From IMG/VR virus record IMGVR_UViG_2657245050_000010: a stretch of DNA of 10,326 nucleotides; one strand, given 5' to 3'. This document shows positions 2,070 to 10,326 of this stretch, piece after piece. Each line of letters starts with the position of its first letter. Position 1 is the stretch's first letter. The notes under the pieces were generated by a model. That model ran no database searches and had not been told where the DNA came from. It worked only from the letters and a program-made list of their open reading frames with translations. A program made the position numbers and the translations under genes. Source of the DNA: a virus. Lineage: Duplodnaviria; Heunggongvirae; Uroviricota; Caudoviricetes.

Positions 2070-2663
2070 ATGTTTACTAAGCGACGATTAAAAAATATTA
2101 ACTGGGAGGCAAGTTCAGTGATTCTTGCTATGGTTCTCTTTGTTGGAAATATATTTTATACAAATCATCGTGATGATATAAGCATGGAGGCTGAGAGGGA
2201 CAGTATCAGAACAATGTTTGCATATGAAATCGCTAATAACCATCGCGCTCTCACTTTTCTTGATAAAACGAGACATATTGGCTTTGACGAAAATTCGGAG
2301 CATTTTGTTGGCGAGCCTTTTGCCATTAATGTCAAATCATTAGGGGGGCCTCGCTTACAGATTGCATTAAACCAGACTGATAAAGTGTTTAAATCCTACT
2401 TCAGCGAATTAAGTAAGCTTGATAAAGAGGATGTTACTCTTCTTATGGACTATTACCATGAGCAAAGCATCCTGCTGGAGCGTGTAAAATCTACGTTACA
2501 GAAGATGAAAAGTGGTAATGATATTAAAGTTGATATTGATGGTTACTTATTAGAAGAACACTTCATGAATGAGCTTAATCTTTCTAATATTTTGCTTAAA
2601 CGCTATAGCCATTTGTTGTCACAATACGCTAAAGAACATAAAACAAAAGATTTACACAATTGA
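2070..2663 (+). CDS. Hypothetical membrane-anchored protein, 197 aa; cargo (moron) gene at the G/FI junction, no recognisable family
   Basis: Long ORF in otherwise non-coding space between Tfa and sheath genes. N-terminus MFTKRRLKNINWEASSVILAMVLFVGNIFY is a basic stretch followed by one hydrophobic helix (signal-anchor-like). Composition is markedly AT-rich (about one-third G+C by eye) against a clearly GC-richer tail module. An alternative in-frame GTG start at 2118 is preceded by GGGAGG at 2104-2109. Confidence 0.7.
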   Translation: MFTKRRLKNINWEASSVILAMVLFVGNIFYTNHRDDISMEAERDSIRTMFAYEIANNHRALTFLDKTRHIGFDENSEHFVGEPFAINVKSLGGPRLQIALNQTDKVFKSYFSELSKLDKEDVTLLMDYYHEQSILLERVKSTLQKMKSGNDIKVDIDGYLLEEHFMNELNLSNILLKRYSHLLSQYAKEHKTKDLHN

Positions 2664-2992: not shown

Positions 2993-4183
2993 ATGAGTGA
3001 CTATCATCACGGCGTGCAGGTGCTGGAGATTAACGACGGCACCCGCGTCATTTCCACCGTATCCACTGCCATTGTCGGCATGGTCTGCACGGCCAGCGAT
3101 GCGGATGCGGAAACCTTCCCCCTCAATAAACCTGTGCTGATTACCAATGTGCAGAGCGCAATTGCAAAGGCCGGTAAAAAAGGCACGCTGGCGGCATCGT
3201 TGCAGGCCATCGCTGACCAGTCAAAACCGGTCACCGTTGTCGTGCGCGTGGAAGACGGCACCGGCGACGACGAAGAAACGAAACTCGCGCAGACTGTTTC
3301 CAATATCATCGGCACCACCGACGAAAACGGTCAGTACACCGGACTGAAAGCCCTGCTGGCGGCGGAGTCGGTAACCGGTGTTAAACCGCGTATTCTCGGT
3401 GTGCCGGGACTGGATACCAAAGAGGTGGCTGTTGCACTGGCATCCGTCTGTCAGAAGCTGCGTGCTTTCGGATATATCAGCGCATGGGGCTGTAAGACCA
3501 TTTCCGAGGTGAAAGCCTACCGCCAGAATTTCAGCCAGCGTGAGCTGATGGTCATCTGGCCGGATTTCCTCGCATGGGATACGGTCAGCAGTACCACCGC
3601 CACCGCGTATGCCACCGCCCATGCGCTGGGTCTGCGCGCTAAAATCGACCAGGAGCAGGGCTGGCATAAAACGCTGTCCAATGTCGGGGTAAACGGTGTT
3701 ACCGGCATCAGCGCCTCTGTATTCTGGGATTTGCAGGAGTCCGGCACCGATGCTGACCTGTTGAACGAGTCAGGTGTCACAACGCTGATTCGCCGTGACG
3801 GTTTCCGCTTCTGGGGTAACCGTACCTGCTCTGATGACCCGCTGTTCCTCTTTGAAAACTACACCCGCACCGCGCAGGTGCTGGCCGACACGATGGCTGA
3901 GGCGCACATGTGGGCGGTGGACAAGCCCATCACTGCAACGCTGATTCGCGACATCGTTGACGGCATCAATGCCAAATTCCGTGAGCTGAAAACAAACGGC
4001 TATATCGTGGATGCGACCTGCTGGTTCAGCGAAGAATCCAACGATGCGGAAACCCTCAAGGCCGGAAAATTGTATATCGACTACGACTATACACCGGTGC
4101 CTCCTCTCGAAAACCTGACCCTGCGCCAGCGTATTACCGATAAATACCTGGCAAATCTGGTCACCTCGGTTAACAGCAATTAA
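2993..4183 (+). CDS. FI: Contractile tail sheath protein (P2 gpFI)
   Basis: 396 aa. Size, position and sequence character (MSDYHHGVQVLEINDGTRVISTVSTAIVGMVCTA...) match P2 FI from memory. GGAG RBS 9 nt upstream. Immediately followed by the tube gene. Confidence 0.93.
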   Translation: MSDYHHGVQVLEINDGTRVISTVSTAIVGMVCTASDADAETFPLNKPVLITNVQSAIAKAGKKGTLAASLQAIADQSKPVTVVVRVEDGTGDDEETKLAQTVSNIIGTTDENGQYTGLKALLAAESVTGVKPRILGVPGLDTKEVAVALASVCQKLRAFGYISAWGCKTISEVKAYRQNFSQRELMVIWPDFLAWDTVSSTTATAYATAHALGLRAKIDQEQGWHKTLSNVGVNGVTGISASVFWDLQESGTDADLLNESGVTTLIRRDGFRFWGNRTCSDDPLFLFENYTRTAQVLADTMAEAHMWAVDKPITATLIRDIVDGINAKFRELKTNGYIVDATCWFSEESNDAETLKAGKLYIDYDYTPVPPLENLTLRQRITDKYLANLVTSVNSN

Positions 4184-4195
4184 GGAGCCTGACCG

Positions 4196-4714
4196 ATGGC
4201 AATGCCGCGCAAACTCAAGTTAATGAACGTCTTTCTGAACGGCTACAGCTATCAGGGCGTTGCAAAGTCCGTCACGCTGCCAAAACTGACCCGTAAGCTC
4301 GAAAACTATCGCGGTGCGGGGATGAACGGCAGCGCACCGGTAGACCTCGGCCTTGATGACGATGCGCTGTCAATGGAGTGGTCGCTCGGGGGCTTCCCGG
4401 ATTCGGTTATCTGGGAGCTTTACGCCGCAATCGGTGTGGATGCTGTGCCGATTCGTTTTGCAGGCTCTTACCAGCGCGACGATACCGGCGAAACTGTGGC
4501 CGTCGAGGTGGTCATGCGTGGACGTCAGAAAGAAATCGACACCGGCGAGGGGAAACAGGGAGAAGACACCGAGTCGAAAATCTCCGTGGTCTGCACCTAT
4601 TTCCGGCTGACGATGGACGGTAAGGAACTGGTCGAAATCGACACCATCAACATGATTGAGAAGGTGAACGGCGTCGACCGGCTGGAACAACACCGCCGCA
4701 ATATCGGCCTGTAA
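4196..4714 (+). CDS. FII: Tail tube protein (P2 gpFII)
   Basis: 172 aa, N-terminus MAMPRKLKLMNVFLNGYSYQG. AAGGAG RBS at 4182-4187. Sheath-tube gene pair order. Confidence 0.93.
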   Translation: MAMPRKLKLMNVFLNGYSYQGVAKSVTLPKLTRKLENYRGAGMNGSAPVDLGLDDDALSMEWSLGGFPDSVIWELYAAIGVDAVPIRFAGSYQRDDTGETVAVEVVMRGRQKEIDTGEGKQGEDTESKISVVCTYFRLTMDGKELVEIDTINMIEKVNGVDRLEQHRRNIGL

Positions 4715-4721
4715 TTTTCAT

Positions 4722-4742
4722 CCGGTCAGCCTGGCTGACCGG
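4722..4742 (+). other. GC-rich hairpin between FII and E (CCGGTCAG / CTGACCGG stem, 5-nt loop), no T-tract
   Basis: Near-perfect palindrome CCGGTCAGCCTGGCTGACCGG starting 8 nt after the FII stop. No following U-run, so more likely an mRNA-stability or attenuation element than a full terminator. Confidence 0.4.
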
Positions 4743-4770
4743 TTAACCCCGATTCAGAAGTGAGAAAACC

Positions 4771-5046
4771 ATGAACAAAGAAAATGTGATTACCCTGGAC
4801 AATCCGGTCAAGCGTGGTGAGCAGGTTATCGAACAGGTCACGCTGATGAAACCCAGTGCGGGGACGCTGCGCGGTGTCAGTCTGGCTGCGGTCGCAAACT
4901 CAGAAGTCGATGCACTGATTAAGGTGCTGCCGCGCATGACGGCACCGATGCTGACCGAGCAGGAAGTCGCCGCGTTGGAACTGCCTGACCTTGTGGCGCT
5001 GGCCGGTAAGGTGGTCGGTTTTTTGTCGCCGAACTCGGTGCAGTGA
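4771..5046 (+). CDS. E: Tail assembly chaperone gpE (zero-frame product, 91 aa)
   Basis: 91-aa ORF between tube and tape-measure genes. Carries a T6G slippery run near its 3' end. Confidence 0.9.
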   Translation: MNKENVITLDNPVKRGEQVIEQVTLMKPSAGTLRGVSLAAVANSEVDALIKVLPRMTAPMLTEQEVAALELPDLVALAGKVVGFLSPNSVQ

Positions 5047-5198
5047 CGTTCCCGAAAAATCTGTCGGTCGATGACCTGATGGCGGATGTGGCAGTGATAT
5101 TTCACTGGCCGCCATCAGAACTGTATCCCATGAGCCTGACCGAACTCATCACATGGCGCGAAAAGGCGCTCCGGCGAAGCGGAAACACGAATGAGTAA
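4771..5198 (+). CDS. E+E': gpE+E' fusion made by programmed -1 ribosomal frameshift at 5019-5025; predicted 142 aa, overlapping the T start
   Basis: After a -1 slip on T_TTT_TTG the -1 frame stays open to TAA at 5196-5198, reading ...KVVGFFVAELGAVTFPKNLSVDDLMADVAVIFHWPPSELYPMSLTELITWREKALRRSGNTNE. Total length of 142 aa equals the P2 E+E' size as I remember it. Confidence 0.8.
5019..5025 (+). other. Slippery heptamer T_TTT_TTG for the E/E' -1 frameshift
   Basis: Run of six T then G, in the correct register relative to the E frame (codons TTT 5020-5022, TTG 5023-5025). Confidence 0.8.
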
Positions 5199-7620
5199 CA
5201 ATGTAAAATTACAGGTATTGCTCAGGGCTGTTGACCAGGCATCCCGCCCGTTTAAATCCATCCGCACAGCGAGCAAATCGCTGTCGGGGGATATCCGGGA
5301 AACACAAAAATCACTGCGCGAGCTGAACGGTCAGGCATCCCGTATTGAGGGATTTCGCAAGACCAGTGCACAGCTCGCCGTGACTGGTCATGCACTTGAA
5401 AAGGCACGGCAGGAGGCCGAAGCCCTTGCCACACAGTTTAAAAACACCGAACGTCCGACACGTGCTCAGGCGAAAGTGCTGGAATCCGCAAAGCGTGCGG
5501 CGGAGGACTTACAGGCGAAATATAACCGCCTGACGGATTCCGTTAAACGCCAGCAGCGGGAACTGGCCGTTGTGGGAATTAATACCCGCAATCTTGCACA
5601 TGATGAGCAGGGACTGAAAAACCGTATCAGTGAAACCACCGCACAACTTAACCGTCAGCGTGACGCGCTGGCGCGTGTCAGTGCGCAACAGGCAAAACTT
5701 AACGCAGTAAAACAGCGTTATCAGACAGGCAAGGAACTGGCCGGAAATATGGCCTCAGTGGGCGCTGCCGGTGTGGGGATTGCGGCGGCGGGAACGATGG
5801 CCGGAGTTAAGTTGCTGATGCCAGGTTATGAGTTTGCGCAGAAAAACTCAGAATTGCAGGCCGTGCTCGGTGTGGCAAAAGATTCCGCCGAAATGGCCGC
5901 GCTCCGCAAACAGGCGCGCCAGCTCGGCGACAATACCGCCGCCTCAGCGGATGATGCGGCCGGTGCACAGATAATCATCGCGAAAGCGGGTGGGGATGTT
6001 GATGCCATTCAGGCGGCAACGCCGGTCACGCTGAATATGGCGCTGGCGAACCGCCGCACGATGGAAGAAAACGCCGCCCTGCTGATGGGGATGAAATCCG
6101 CCTTTCAGCTTTCAAACGATAAGGTCGCTCATATCGGGGATGTTCTCTCCATGACGATGAACAAAACCGCCGCCGATTTTGACGGCATGAGCGATGCGCT
6201 GACCTATGCCGCACCTGTGGCAAAAAATGCCGGTGTCAGCATTGAAGAAACCGCCGCAATGGTCGGGGCGCTGCATGATGCAAAAATCACAGGCTCAATG
6301 GCGGGGACGGGAAGCCGTGCCGTGTTAAGCCGCCTGCAGGCACCGACGGGAAAAGCGTGGGATGCACTGAAAGAGCTTGGTGTGAAAACCTCAGACAGCA
6401 AGGGAAACACCCGACCAGTATTTACCATTCTGAAAGAAATGCAGGCCAGTTTTGAGAAAAACCGGCTCGGTACTGCCCAGCAGGCCGAATACATGAAAAC
6501 CATTTTCGGGGAGGAGGCCAGCTCAGCCGCCGCTGTGCTGATGACTGCCGCGTCAACCGGAAAGCTGGACAAACTGACCGCTGCGTTTAAAGCCTCAGAC
6601 GGAAAGACCGCAGAACTGGTAAATATCATGCAGGACAACCTCGGCGGTGACTTTAAGGAGTTTCAGTCCGCTTATGAGGCGGTGGGGACTGACCTGTTTG
6701 ACCAGCAGGAAGGCGCACTGCGTAAGCTCACTCAGACGGCCACAAAGTATGTGTTAAAACTCGACGGCTGGATCCAGAAAAACAAATCACTGGCGTCAAC
6801 CATCGGCCTCATTGTCGGTGGCGCGCTGGCGCTTACTGGCATCATCGGTGCCATTGGTCTTGTAGCCTGGCCGGTTATCACCGGCATCAATGCCATTATC
6901 GCGGCAGCAGGCGCAATGGGGGCAATCTTCACGACGGTTGGTAGTGCTGTTATGACGGCCATCGGGGCGATTAGCTGGCCGGTTGTGGCCGTGGTGGCCG
7001 CCATTGTCGCCGGGGCGTTGCTTATCCGTAAATACTGGGAGCCTGTCAGCGCATTCTTTGCCGGTGTGGTCGAGGGGCTCATGAGTGCCTTTGCGCCGGT
7101 CGGGGAAATGTTCGCCCCGCTGGCACCCATTTTCGACGGTCTCGGCGAAAAACTTCGCGGCGTCTGGCAGTGGTTTAAAGACCTGATAGCGCCGGTGAAA
7201 GCGACTCAGGACACGCTCAACAGTTGTCGTGATGTTGGGGTTATGTTCGGTCAGACGCTGGCCGATGCGCTGCTGATGCCGCTTAACGCCTTTAACAAGC
7301 TGCGAAGCGGGATTGACTGGGTGCTCGAAAAACTCGGCATTATCAACAAAGAATCCAGCTCACTTGACCAGACAGCGGCGAAAGCCAATGCAGCGACGCA
7401 GAACGGTTACAGCCCGGCAATCAGCGCATACAACAGCTATCAGCCGGTCACGGCACCCGCCGGTAAAACCTACATCGACCAGAGTCGGCCAATCTATCAA
7501 ATCACCGTGCCGGGCAATGGTATGCCGGGAGATCGGTTGGGTAATGATTTGCAGGATGCATTAGAAAAGTATGAGCGCGAGAAGCGCGCCAAAGCCCGCG
7601 CAAGCATGATGCATGACTAA
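5191..7620 (+). CDS. T: Tail tape measure protein (P2 gpT)
   Basis: 809 aa. Ala/Gln-rich coiled-coil-like N-terminal half, then a long Gly/Ala/Ile-rich hydrophobic segment (residues ~530-610) typical of tape measure proteins. Start overlaps the E' end. Position after the chaperone pair. Confidence 0.93.
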   Translation: MSNNVKLQVLLRAVDQASRPFKSIRTASKSLSGDIRETQKSLRELNGQASRIEGFRKTSAQLAVTGHALEKARQEAEALATQFKNTERPTRAQAKVLESAKRAAEDLQAKYNRLTDSVKRQQRELAVVGINTRNLAHDEQGLKNRISETTAQLNRQRDALARVSAQQAKLNAVKQRYQTGKELAGNMASVGAAGVGIAAAGTMAGVKLLMPGYEFAQKNSELQAVLGVAKDSAEMAALRKQARQLGDNTAASADDAAGAQIIIAKAGGDVDAIQAATPVTLNMALANRRTMEENAALLMGMKSAFQLSNDKVAHIGDVLSMTMNKTAADFDGMSDALTYAAPVAKNAGVSIEETAAMVGALHDAKITGSMAGTGSRAVLSRLQAPTGKAWDALKELGVKTSDSKGNTRPVFTILKEMQASFEKNRLGTAQQAEYMKTIFGEEASSAAAVLMTAASTGKLDKLTAAFKASDGKTAELVNIMQDNLGGDFKEFQSAYEAVGTDLFDQQEGALRKLTQTATKYVLKLDGWIQKNKSLASTIGLIVGGALALTGIIGAIGLVAWPVITGINAIIAAAGAMGAIFTTVGSAVMTAIGAISWPVVAVVAAIVAGALLIRKYWEPVSAFFAGVVEGLMSAFAPVGEMFAPLAPIFDGLGEKLRGVWQWFKDLIAPVKATQDTLNSCRDVGVMFGQTLADALLMPLNAFNKLRSGIDWVLEKLGIINKESSSLDQTAAKANAATQNGYSPAISAYNSYQPVTAPAGKTYIDQSRPIYQITVPGNGMPGDRLGNDLQDALEKYEREKRAKARASMMHD

Positions 7621-7631
7621 GGAGACTGATT

Positions 7632-8096
7632 ATGATGCTGGCATTAGGTATGTTTGTTTTTATGCGTCAGACGCTGCCCTACCAGAGCATGCAGCGCAGC
7701 GCGGATTATAGCTGGGCGTCAAACTCTCGCATCGGGAAGCGTGACGCTTTTCAGTATCTCGGCGAGGGGGAAGATAAAATCACCCTGAGCGGTGACCTGT
7801 ATCCTGAGCTGACCGGCGGTAAGCTCACGATGCTGGCGCTTTATGCAATGGCTGAACAGGGGCGCGCATGGCCGCTTATCTCTGGCTCAGGCTGGATTTA
7901 CGGGATGTTTGTTGTCAGTAATGTCTCGGAGACCGGCACGGTATTTTTTGAGGATGGGACGCCACGAAAAATCAGCTTCACCCTGTCACTGACCCGTGTC
8001 GATGAGTCGCTCGCCGCGGTGTATGGCGATATTGGAAAACAGGCCGAAAGTCTGGTCGGGAAAGCTGGCGATCTGCTGTCGATGGTGGGGGCGTAA
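7632..8096 (+). CDS. U: Tail protein gpU
   Basis: 154-aa ORF directly after T, GGAG RBS at 7621-7624. Order and size match P2 U. Confidence 0.88.
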   Translation: MMLALGMFVFMRQTLPYQSMQRSADYSWASNSRIGKRDAFQYLGEGEDKITLSGDLYPELTGGKLTMLALYAMAEQGRAWPLISGSGWIYGMFVVSNVSETGTVFFEDGTPRKISFTLSLTRVDESLAAVYGDIGKQAESLVGKAGDLLSMVGA

Positions 8097-8098
8097 TC

Positions 8099-9271
8099 AT
8101 GCTGGATATTATCACCGGCGCGGGTGCCACGCTGACGCCCGACTTTATGCTGACACTGGAAAGCAAAGATATCACCGGCAATATCAGTGACCGGCTGATT
8201 AACCTCTCGATGACGGACAATCGGGGTTTTGAGGCCGACCAGCTCGACATCGAGCTCGACGATACTGACGGTCTGGTCGCATTGCCGATTCGCGGTGCGG
8301 TGCTGTCGCTGTATCTCGGGTGGAAAGGTTTCTCTCTGGTCAGCAAGGGGCGATTTACCGTCGATGAGGTAGAGCACCGGGGGGCGCCGGATACGGTAAC
8401 CATTCGCGCCCGGGGTGCGGATTTTCGCGGGACGCTTAATTCCCGTCGTGAGGAGTCATGGCATGACACCACGCTCGGCGCAATCGTCAGCTCGATAGCT
8501 GAGCGGAACAAGTTAACGGCCAGCGTCACTGATTCTCTTGCGGGGATCCAGATTCCGCATATCGACCAGTCTCAGGAATCCGACGCCGTTTTCCTGACTC
8601 GCCTCGCAGAACGCAACGGCGGTGCGGTCTCAGTGAAAGCGGGTAGATTGCTGATGCTCAAAGCGGGAAGCGGTACCACTGCCAGTGGAAAAGCTATTCC
8701 TCAAATTACCATCCAGCGCGGTGACGGTGACCGGCATCAGTTTGCCATTGCCGACCGTGGCGCTTACACCGGCGTAACCGCTAAGTGGCTGCACACTAAA
8801 GACCCGAAACCGGCGAAACAAAAGCAGACAGTGAAGCTGAAACGTAAGCCCAAAGAGCAACACCTCCGGGCGCTACAGCACCCGAAAGCAAAACCAGTGA
8901 GCAGTAAAGTCACGGCCAAAAAGCAAAAAGAGCAGGAAGCCCGCGAGGGTGAATACATGGCCGGTGAGGCTGACAACGTTTTCGCGCTGACGACCATTTA
9001 CGCGACAAAGGCGCAAGCGATGCGTGCAGCTCAGGCGAAGTGGGATAAATTGCAGCGTGGGGTTGCGGAGTTCTCCATTATGTTAGCGACCGGCCGCGAG
9101 GATATTTACCCCGAAACGCCGGTCAGGGTCTCAGGCTTTAAGAGCGTTATAGACGAGCAAGCATGGATAATCAGCAGGGTGACCCATAATCTCGGTGGGA
9201 ATGGCTTCACAACGGCTGTAGAGCTTGAGGTGATGCTTTCGGATGTAGAATATGACACCGACGAATCTTGA
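8099..9271 (+). CDS. D: Tail protein gpD (phage late control D family)
   Basis: 390-aa ORF starting 2 nt after the U stop. Size and position match P2 D. Contains an internal Lys-rich low-complexity stretch. Confidence 0.88.
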   Translation: MLDIITGAGATLTPDFMLTLESKDITGNISDRLINLSMTDNRGFEADQLDIELDDTDGLVALPIRGAVLSLYLGWKGFSLVSKGRFTVDEVEHRGAPDTVTIRARGADFRGTLNSRREESWHDTTLGAIVSSIAERNKLTASVTDSLAGIQIPHIDQSQESDAVFLTRLAERNGGAVSVKAGRLLMLKAGSGTTASGKAIPQITIQRGDGDRHQFAIADRGAYTGVTAKWLHTKDPKPAKQKQTVKLKRKPKEQHLRALQHPKAKPVSSKVTAKKQKEQEAREGEYMAGEADNVFALTTIYATKAQAMRAAQAKWDKLQRGVAEFSIMLATGREDIYPETPVRVSGFKSVIDEQAWIISRVTHNLGGNGFTTAVELEVMLSDVEYDTDES

Positions 9272-9347: not shown

Positions 9348-9566
9348 ATGATGCACTGTCCGCTATGTCAGGATGCAGCACACGCACGATCAAGCCGGTA
9401 CCTGAGCACTGAAACGAAAGAGCGCTACCACCAGTGCCAGAACATCAACTGCGGTTGCACTTTCGTCACCCACGAGAGCCTTGCTCGTTTTATCGTGAAG
9501 CCAGGAGAAATTGAACCCGCCCCACCCCACCCGTCTAAATACCAACAACATCAGCTCTGGCTTTAA
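9348..9566 (+). CDS. ogr: Ogr, zinc-finger late-gene transcription activator (72 aa)
   Basis: MMHCPLCQDAAHARSSRYLSTETKERYHQCQNINC has the Cys-X2-Cys-X22-Cys-X4-Cys spacing and strong resemblance to P2 Ogr (remembered as MFHCPLCQHAAHAR...KERYHQCQNVNC). The track ORF begins at 9252, but the internal ATG at 9348 is the one with an RBS and gives 72 aa. Confidence 0.9.
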   Translation: MMHCPLCQDAAHARSSRYLSTETKERYHQCQNINCGCTFVTHESLARFIVKPGEIEPAPPHPSKYQQHQLWL

Positions 9567-9571
9567 ATCAA

Positions 9572-9590
9572 AGGCCTGCTTTGCAGGCCT
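9572..9590. terminator. Bidirectional intrinsic terminator: stem AGGCCTGC / GCAGGCCT, loop TTT, flanked by an A-rich run upstream and a T-rich run downstream
   Basis: Perfect 8-bp GC-rich hairpin in the 37-nt gap between the convergent ogr stop (9566) and the minus-strand gene stop (9604). U-rich flank in both orientations. Confidence 0.6.
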
Positions 9591-9603
9591 TCTTGTATCA
9601 AAC

Positions 9604-10326
9604 TTAGATTGGTAATGAAAAAGCTATCGCCTTGCAGATATGTTGCTTTGTTAACGCAGGATGTGTTGAAGCAAAAAGCGATAAAAAGCTTTTAGCTTCA
9701 ACCGAATCATCATTAAGCGAAATATTATCTTTGATGAATGGATGAAGTGCGATTCCAGCGCTCATAGATAACGGCACATAGTTGATGAATATATCTTCTT
9801 TTGTGAGACCTAGCTGGTTTGCTTGTGCTTCAAATGAATTAGCATCTAAATAATCACGTATACGTTCTTTGGCCTCTGGTCGGAGTCTCGATTCTTGACG
9901 CGGCAGAGAAAGCATCTTATCAATATCTCCCCATGAGATAGGAACCTCAAAATAGCCACCACCTTCTTCCTCTGGAGGTGCCGGGAAATTCACATAAAAA
10001 TAGTTTTTTTGCTGTGTAGGGTCGTTCATGGACTGACGATGATAGTTATAAATACTTCTAATACGGTTGGCCTTGTTATGATGCCGAGCATTTCGAATAA
10101 CAAGCATCATTAATAATTCAGGTTTCAAATACCAGTCAGGCTCTAATCCATTGCTTTGCATGTTGTCATACAAATTATGAAAAGCATTAAGTTGTGTATT
10201 CAGGCCCGATTCTAAATTGCCAATTGCTTCAGCACGATCAATAGCCAACAAACGCTGTAGTGACCAGTTAGACTCTAATAAAACCCGAAAGGCCTGTGCA
10301 AGATCTTCAAAAGAGTGGGAAAGCAT
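9604..10326 (-). CDS. Hypothetical protein, at least 240 aa, with a HEPN-like RNxxxH motif (VIRNARHHNK); candidate Abi-type or HEPN RNase. Start codon coincides with the window edge, so the N-terminus may be incomplete
   Basis: Uninterrupted 723-nt minus-strand ORF, convergent with ogr. AT-rich (roughly 38-40% G+C by eye) against the GC-richer tail genes. The RNARHH hexapeptide fits the R-[N]-x3-H form of the HEPN Rx4-6H catalytic motif. No other family signature recognised. Confidence 0.6.
   Translation of the reverse strand: MLSHSFEDLAQAFRVLLESNWSLQRLLAIDRAEAIGNLESGLNTQLNAFHNLYDNMQSNGLEPDWYLKPELLMMLVIRNARHHNKANRIRSIYNYHRQSMNDPTQQKNYFYVNFPAPPEEEGGGYFEVPISWGDIDKMLSLPRQESRLRPEAKERIRDYLDANSFEAQANQLGLTKEDIFINYVPLSMSAGIALHPFIKDNISLNDDSVEAKSFLSLFASTHPALTKQHICKAIAFSLPI

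Follow-up and report, generated by a model that had tools for sequence, protein, structure and literature searches.

The window analyzed here, a 10,326-nucleotide stretch of Caudoviricetes DNA (IMG/VR record IMGVR_UViG_2657245050_000010), ends in two convergent genes. The first is ogr, the late-gene activator and the last backbone gene before the cargo slot (9348 to 9566, plus strand; recognized by Pfam Ogr_Delta with an E value of 1.2e-21 and by annotation), and the second is an orphan gene coding for a 240-amino-acid protein (9604 to 10326, minus strand, with the ATG at 10326 and the stop codon at 9604, from open reading frame [ORF] calling and RefSeq annotation). Their ends are separated by 37 bp, within which we read directly from the sequence a hairpin, AAGGCCTGC-TTT-GCAGGCCTT, with a 9-bp stem and no assigned strand (9571 to 9591). 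A consensus terminator scan missed this hairpin and its T-run is weak, but it is probably a bidirectional terminator common to ogr and the orphan gene. An initial annotation, made from the sequence alone, had already placed the gene opposite ogr and immediately beyond it, and had called its composition AT-rich and unlike that of the tail genes. Both observations hold, with a GC content of 0.40 over positions 9601 to 10200 versus 0.53 to 0.60 across the tail genes (3000 to 9000).

That annotation also described the reading frame as 240 residues or longer. The length of 240 stands, and a longer ORF is excluded because an in-frame TAA sits two codons 5' of the ATG; the RefSeq coding sequence and the N-termini and lengths of the homologues agree, ruling out continuation past the window edge. 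RefSeq gives the identical 240-residue coding sequence, labeled as a hypothetical protein, in the matching Escherichia coli genomes (WP_000948616 in FORC 064 and WP_000948614 in E2348/69), whose DNA is 99.9% identical. From its sequence the protein is predicted to be soluble, with a mass of 27.5 kDa, a pI of 5.75, and no transmembrane segment. The gene evolves under purifying selection, with ratios of nonsynonymous to synonymous substitution of 0.12 for the comparison with the Citrobacter orthologue and 0.055 for that with a P2-like viral contig; pairs more distant than these show saturation at synonymous sites.

The orphan gene is prophage cargo at the rplS attachment site

When the final 1,127 bases of the window are compared with 5,426 complete E. 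coli genomes, 17 of these align at 99.8% identity or more, among them the enteropathogenic E. coli (EPEC) strain E2348/69, and the orphan gene is likewise present in 17 of the 5,426. Upstream of its start codon there are 205 bp, consisting of an attachment (att) arm and a terminator, followed by rplS-trmD-rimM-rpsP-ffh, with attR lying 205 bp past the start codon. At the corresponding site in K-12 the gene is absent and the gap between yfiB and rplS is only 75 bp. When both junctions of the intact FORC 064 prophage are set against K-12, the att core, TTAGTTAAG(A/G)CGCT, falls at the 3' end of rplS, and integration rebuilds the last rplS codons with a synonymous change. Because the core maps to the rplS 3' end, the orphan gene and its upstream 205 bp are phage-borne DNA, and the order in the circular phage is CI, int, a 309-codon gene, attP, the terminator, the orphan gene, and ogr, the last two converging. 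The suspicion that this is an accessory gene near the phage-host junction is thus borne out, with the gene inside the prophage end at rplS. A partner gene or upstream domain, which had been thought to lie past the window edge, is not found there: the ORF is complete and is followed by the att arm, the terminator, and rplS.

Fifteen other E. coli genomes have in common with this locus only the 72 att-proximal bases, and in the three that were inspected 143 bp without a cargo gene separate ogr from rplS. Lying within the att boundaries, atypical in GC content, and absent from sister prophages at the rplS site, the orphan gene has the properties of a moron or P2 hotspot gene; it is dispensable accessory cargo of a P2/186-type temperate phage. 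Its position beside the rplS operon, and a Citrobacter genome that has the gene without the prophage, could be taken to favor a conserved host chromosomal gene, or even a noncoding or spurious ORF. We consider this refuted, and give it practically no probability. A host core gene is rejected by the sparse occurrence in E. coli and the absence from K-12; the gene is inside an att-bounded prophage, an integrase fragment adjoins the Citrobacter copy, and at least 190 homologues share the length of the protein and are under purifying selection.

Repeated GTGGACAC motifs are present in the 205-bp upstream stretch and also on the attL arm, and on both arms they look like Int arm-type sites. The arms themselves were located outside the window (locus L003, 21235 to 21332, and locus L004, ~12700 to 12900), and sister phages at the same att core have CTGCCGCCA repeats in place of GTGGACAC. 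As the 5' region of the orphan gene overlaps the arm, Int or IHF binding could influence expression of the cargo gene. Just after rplS there is a bidirectional terminator with an 11-bp stem, which is supplied by the phage and is new for the rplS operon; expression by read-through from that operon was considered and rejected, since this terminator intervenes.

A small family with a near-invariant RNxxxH motif

The 240-residue protein is the founding member of a small, undescribed family. When 5.8 billion proteins were searched by a word index, at least 190 relatives emerged, nearly all of 237 to 245 residues, none with a Pfam domain and all named hypothetical. Among 1.84 billion cluster representatives, searched exhaustively with a profile, only 156 clusters belong to the family, and a permissive search with a profile of the divergent family recovered core members only. 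In a one-genome-per-species set (185,579 species) there are 30 loci, ranging from Gammaproteobacteria to Planctomycetota, Bacteroidota, and a candidate phyla radiation (CPR) bacterium. Translated searches (tblastn) against 50,697 GenBank phage records gave no match, and in the literature we found nothing on the accession, the signature peptide, or the E2348/69 prophage. One source calls the Shewanella vesiculosa member, P0078, a "DUF2612 domain-containing protein"; no DUF2612 Pfam match was seen in the scanned family members, a set to which P0078 does not belong.

None of the families in PADLOC-DB v2.0.0 (5,027 models) matches the protein. Among 54 divergent relatives, PADLOC gave only subthreshold matches to Cas13b, Cas8f, and DrmC, in 5 of the 54, and we count the weak matches of three divergent members to the Cas13b model (best E value, 0.005) as a hint of fold. 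Ten long or remote members likewise showed no HEPN family in Pfam and PADLOC scans.

The peptide VIRNARHHNK, to which the initial annotation drew attention, occupies residues 76 to 85. Within it, R78-N79-A80-R81-H82-H83 (10078 to 10095, minus strand) forms an RNxxxH (Rx4H) signature that we propose as the catalytic motif. The annotation had cautioned that one short motif is weak evidence, and rightly so: shuffled versions of the protein contain 1.2 Rx4-6H sites per shuffle, with a probability of 0.73 of at least one, although RNxxxH is rarer (P = 0.028). The motif gains meaning only from its conservation across the family, and this is pronounced. In 218 distinct full-length relatives, no position of the protein is as well conserved as R78 (99.5%) and H83 (99.1%), so that a lack of conservation of these residues, which would have undermined the HEPN idea, is not seen. 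They are followed by D30 (about 99%), N79 (98.6%), E18, E33, D54, and D134 (97 to 98%), and H82 (96.8%). In an alignment of the 54 divergent sequences, reaching down to 17% identity, R78 is the sole invariant column. The functional importance of R78, N79, and H83 is therefore well supported by sequence conservation. The pattern R78-N79-x3-H83 conforms to the HEPN signature of Rx4-6H with a polar residue directly after the arginine, this residue being N, D, or H and typically N (PMC3710099).

Predicted structure

AlphaFold2 with the family alignment produced a confident model (predicted local distance difference test [pLDDT] score, 94.4; predicted template modeling [pTM] score, 0.91), and a relative of 19% identity, modeled with its own subfamily alignment, gave the same order of elements (pLDDT, 93.3; pTM, 0.91). 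Both models predict two parts: a bundle of helices at the N-terminus, in which a HEPN-type R-N-x3-H site closes helix 3, and, attached to it, an alpha/beta region peculiar to the family. The N-terminal region (~residues 1 to 100; 10027 to 10326, minus strand) comprises helix 1 (residues 3 to 26), helix 2 (31 to 58), helix 3 (69 to 81), and a short helix (92 to 99). DSSP assignment on the model has helix 3 ending in the motif (residues 78 to 83), and in the distant relative helix 3 spans residues 71 to 84, with the motif, R80 to H85, again at its end. Conserved residues in this region include R14 and E18 in helix 1 and D30, E33, N37, H50, and D54 in or at helix 2. The alpha/beta region (~residues 101 to 240; 9607 to 10026, minus strand), which we delimit from the model and from conservation, has predicted strands at residues 107 to 113, 129 to 131, 179 to 182, and 230 to 236 and helices at 132 to 140, 152 to 171, 183 to 201, and 209 to 220, with D134 and F218 conserved. 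One of its long helices may complete the bundle, and we propose that the region is a regulatory or sensor part.

HEPN domains are described as four-helix up-down bundles of 100 to 120 residues that tolerate inserts between helices 2 and 3, with the motif where helix 3 ends and an acidic residue conserved in helix 2, usually within E-x3-[KR] (PMC3710099). The placement of the motif in two independent models agrees with this description, and as modeled the motif, N79, and the motif position fit it exactly. The initial annotation had suggested looking for the HEPN fold in a structural model; the RNxxxH motif does end helix 3 of an N-terminal bundle, and Foldseek returned no PDB match to the whole. 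The structures named in the fold comparison were the HEPN toxins 7ae2, 5yep, and 8xdj, YutE (1ylm), HI0074 (1jog), and TTHA0636 (1wwp), together with LAS1L, Csx1, and 3c18. The two-part fold overall has no close solved or viral-predicted relative, and the HEPN assignment, as a prediction, derives from the motif, its position, and the type of bundle, none accompanied by a significant match.

A helical bundle of this kind could also be noncatalytic, acting in HPt-like phosphotransfer, in ligand or nucleic acid binding, or as a regulator, with the R/N/H cluster binding some partner and not cleaving RNA. This is distinctly unlikely, for the HPt signature H-x-x-K-G is absent (H50 is found in the context F-H-[NS]-L-Y-D) and no two-component genes recur nearby. 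Moreover, HEPN families with the complete R-[N/D/H]-x3-H are predicted to have RNase activity, and the binding-only versions have lost the motif (PMC3710099).

Genomic contexts and alternative roles

Fourteen viral contigs in IMG/VR carry a relative of the orphan gene. In six P2-like contigs the convergent arrangement with ogr is kept at the contig end, and across these six identity ranges from 100% to 67% for the orphan gene and from 100% to 53% for gpD. Two further contigs have int followed by the gene, and five lambdoid contigs have a DNA methylase gene, the orphan gene homologue, dinI, and ninB, in that order. In Enterobacter lambdoid prophages the gene always lies ~175 bp after a 662-codon cytosine DNA methylase gene, at a position upstream of dinI within the nin region (loci L009 to L012 and L067 to L070, ~5838 to 8723); this linkage may be historical, because these phages are all closely related. 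An Atlantibacter metagenomic contig has a circular junction of int, the gene, and ogr (converging), with the int-att slot occupied.

The gene is also found apart from intact phages. In Citrobacter freundii (locus L017, 6001 to 8252) the order is rplS, the HEPN-like gene, a 93-codon integrase fragment, a trypsin-like gene, and yfiB. The prophage has decayed, with phage functions lost and only the two att-proximal cargo genes surviving, which suggests selection for the cargo. In Vibrio parahaemolyticus the gene is a single-ORF superintegron cassette with attC-type repeats on both sides.

These settings bear on a different kind of phage benefit, in which the protein would be an anti-defense factor or a modulator of host physiology, perhaps still using its RNxxxH motif. 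It might degrade an RNA or nucleotide signal of host immunity, for example, or modulate the host in lysogens or early in infection. DNA methylases are a classic anti-restriction device, and such a role would suit the occupation of three temperate-phage slots, including the lambdoid early nin region beside a methylase gene, as well as the retention of the gene in P2-like phages over long divergence and the lack of a match to any known defense model. We nevertheless regard it as unlikely. The gene also occurs off phages, as a cassette of a chromosomal integron and, in many phyla, in islands that neighbor restriction systems, and it is missing from the GenBank phage records searched; its persistence in the decayed Citrobacter prophage, devoid of any phage functions, speaks for the host cell, more than an infecting phage, as the beneficiary.

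The gene always travels alone. Neighbor clustering of 36 nonredundant loci revealed no recurrent partner gene, and a conserved protein partner of any kind is rejected; the commonest neighbor family, tyrosine integrases, occurs at 6 of the 36 loci. A homologous HNH endonuclease gene lies directly downstream in two very distant taxa, Aeromonas (locus L013, 8803 to 9657) and a Candidatus Roizmanbacteria contig (locus L041, 1220 to 2326), and the pair may be a two-gene variant. Restriction enzymes (Type I, Type IIG/ISP, and Type IV) are found among the 97 immediate neighbors, as are mad2/mad3, BovA, the PDC-M30 and PDC-M41 candidates, a Tn3 transposase, integrases, and methyltransferases. RtcB seals the RNA ends that HEPN RNases make, and in Rufibacter immobilis (locus L023, 2575 to 6723) the gene is the last in an RlaP-RlaP-RtcB operon, 41 bp after the RtcB gene, in an RNA repair neighborhood with a WYL regulator, Ro/TROVE, and Hen1-Pnkp. 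This single case suggests RNA-end chemistry.

Solitary occurrence is pertinent to the idea of an addiction-module toxin that stabilizes the mobile element through a small hidden antitoxin, peptide or RNA, with no part in phage defense. HEPN-type toxins are typical components of toxin-antitoxin systems, integron arrays and prophages are known homes of stabilizing modules, and the gene is retained in the decayed Citrobacter prophage. We judge this improbable all the same: no neighbor is conserved over the 36 loci, the Vibrio copy is a single ORF between attC repeats, and in E. coli the flanks offer just the 37 bp on one side and the att arm with its terminator on the other. An RNA antitoxin or ToxI-like repeats were considered as well and rejected, no Rfam family above threshold and no ToxI-like repeat array being found flanking the E. 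coli gene. The loci fetched around family members contained no HepT-like ORF.

A candidate HEPN-like RNase in phage exclusion

We favor the reading, at about even chances, that the orphan gene codes for a new stand-alone HEPN-like RNase, exchangeable as cargo of temperate phages, integrons, and defense islands, that acts in phage exclusion. If so, exclusion probably takes the form of abortive infection, and the C-terminal region probably governs activity. The lysogen would produce the protein in a latent form, and infection by another phage, or a stress signal, would be sensed through the C-terminal region or through oligomerization. The HEPN-like site would then cleave RNA independently of metal, leaving 2',3'-cyclic phosphate ends, and translation would halt, aborting the infection and protecting the lysogen population together with its resident prophage. 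We infer the RNase chemistry, the latency and activation, the role in defense, and the mode of control from sequence-based evidence. In favor of this reading are the near-invariant R78, N79, and H83, the position of the motif and the acidic residues D30, E33, and D54 of helix 2, the weak Cas13b matches, the solitary mobility, the restriction and other defense genes among the neighbors, the RtcB linkage in Rufibacter, and the purifying selection.

Several results weigh against this reading. Scans of the protein with Pfam, NCBIfam, PHROGs, and PADLOC gave no usable match. The Pfam searches for the HEPN clan and Abi_2 that the initial annotation had recommended were negative: neither a HEPN-clan family, at E values up to 10, nor Abi_2 (PF07751) matched the protein or its 54 divergent relatives. 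PDB sequence searches with the protein and two profiles returned chance matches only (SmtB and spectrin), and hhalign against RnlA, with a single sequence as template, gave a probability of 0.06%. Sequence searches often fail to link one HEPN family with another, and for this reason the missing profile match weakens HEPN membership and does not exclude it. Foldseek found nothing in the PDB (best E value, 0.19, with TM-scores of 0.26 or lower) and nothing in BFVD. The acidic pattern of helix 2 is E33-x3-N37 and not the usual E-x3-[KR], although its location fits; the up-down topology suggests that E33 lies near the motif. No promoter was recognized upstream of the gene, and no antitoxin or regulator is evident that would keep a constitutive RNase harmless. 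The defense genes among the neighbors form a raw tally that may not exceed the background, and a recurrent RtcB or RNA repair partner is rejected, with RtcB linkage at 1 of 36 loci.

A bolder version is possible, and we hold it at a considerably lower probability than the favored reading. The family would be an unrecognized branch of HEPN-like nucleases, with a fold lacking a counterpart in the PDB or among predicted viral structures, and would constitute an antitoxin-free, one-gene abortive infection system in which the C-terminal alpha/beta region directly senses a phage component and the RNA damage is repairable by RtcB. The idea of repairable damage comes from the Rufibacter operon, which hints at a damage/repair pair; if correct, a new defense system and a natural damage/repair pair would be in hand, and in P2-type phages the two sides of attP, ogr-att and int-att, would represent one more untapped source of such genes.

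If the favored prediction holds, clinical E. coli, among them the prototype EPEC strain E2348/69, carry a new anti-phage or conflict effector that consists of a single gene. The HEPN superfamily would gain a family missed by all current profile libraries, a toxic RNase would be silenced without an antitoxin, and both attP flanks in P2/186-type phages would carry exchangeable cargo, the gene on the opposite flank coding for a membrane protein with four transmembrane segments. The protein is compact, its structure is modeled with confidence, and two residues stand out as targets for mutation. Should the prediction fail, what remains is a well-defined orphan family with an unexplained, near-invariant R/N/H/H cluster.

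Other genes of the window and the wider prophage

The remainder of the window is a P2-type late region, with genes for the tail fiber (91 to 1317), tail-fiber assembly (1321 to 1848), sheath (2993 to 4183), and tube (4196 to 4714), then E/E' between the tube and tape measure genes, the tape measure (5191 to 7620), U (7632 to 8096), and D (8099 to 9271). A second orphan cargo gene (2070 to 2663, plus strand; 197 codons; GC content, ~0.36) is within a low-GC patch at ~1800 to 2800, between the tail-fiber assembly and sheath genes, which is the P2 Z/fun slot. No Pfam family matches this gene, which is 98 to 99% identical to "hypothetical proteins" in 13 Peduovirus records and is present in ~201 E. 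coli genomes. In FORC 064 and E2348/69 the Z/fun slot is occupied instead by an invertible tail-fiber segment with a recombinase, and the window is therefore a different variant of the prophage.

At the other end of the same prophage, the 309-codon gene (locus L004, 11770 to 12699) overlaps the end of int and sits between int and attL, so that both attP flanks carry one cargo gene each. Its product has no Pfam family and four predicted transmembrane segments (residues ~25 to 50, 63 to 92, 159 to 182, and 194 to 217). The same position is taken by the trypsin-like gene in Citrobacter and by the HEPN-like gene itself in Atlantibacter phages. The FORC 064 prophage also codes for a 447-residue DUF4062 protein between the S and V genes (locus L003, 6701 to 8044) and has two unannotated genes, of 228 and 327 codons, in the gpA-gpQ hotspot (locus L004, 3766 to 5432); in the annotation, replication gene A is a pseudogene interrupted by an internal stop (locus L004, 6101 to 8323), and a P4-like satellite is integrated at ssrA, 12 kb away (locus L003, 33290 to 41127).

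Comparison with known systems

A HEPN-type effector on a prophage is familiar; this family was missed by every library queried and not found in the literature searched. The minimal HEPN toxins of HEPN/MNT modules (HepT, DUF86; Shewanella SO_3166, PDB 5YEP; and 7AE2, 8XDJ, 1YLM, and 1WWP) show no sequence or profile similarity to the orphan protein, which differs from them in its extra family-specific region of ~140 residues and in having E-x3-N in helix 2 in place of E-x3-[KR]. Unlike HepT-MntA, the orphan gene has no adjacent MNT antitoxin at the 36 loci, occurring in one as a single-ORF cassette and in E. coli in a position that leaves no room for such a gene. The HPt and CheA-P1 four-helix bundles differ in other respects, since the orphan protein has no H-x-x-K-G, no two-component context, and its most conserved residues on helix 3.

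The proposed logic, in which infection is aborted by a HEPN RNase that a mobile element or prophage carries, is shared with the lactococcal AbiD/AbiF proteins (Pfam Abi_2) and E. coli RnlA/LsoA, which are also near in size (~300 to 360 residues versus 240), and RnlA likewise resides in a cryptic prophage. The orphan protein nonetheless matches neither the Abi_2 nor the HEPN_RnaseLS model, its alignment to RnlA was negative, and its locus lacks RnlB, the dedicated antitoxin of RnlA.

The orphan protein is unrelated to Old, Tin, and Fun, but the gene resembles the P2 exclusion genes old, tin, and fun(Z), and those of P2-like hotspots, as low-GC, dispensable cargo of variable presence between backbone genes (PMC9122126, PMC13586616). 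The published P2-like hotspots are gpA-gpQ, int-att, int-gpA, and positions within the tail genes, with ogr-att not named (PMC9122126, PMC13586616); the orphan gene occupies the ogr-att slot here and the int-att slot in Atlantibacter phages.

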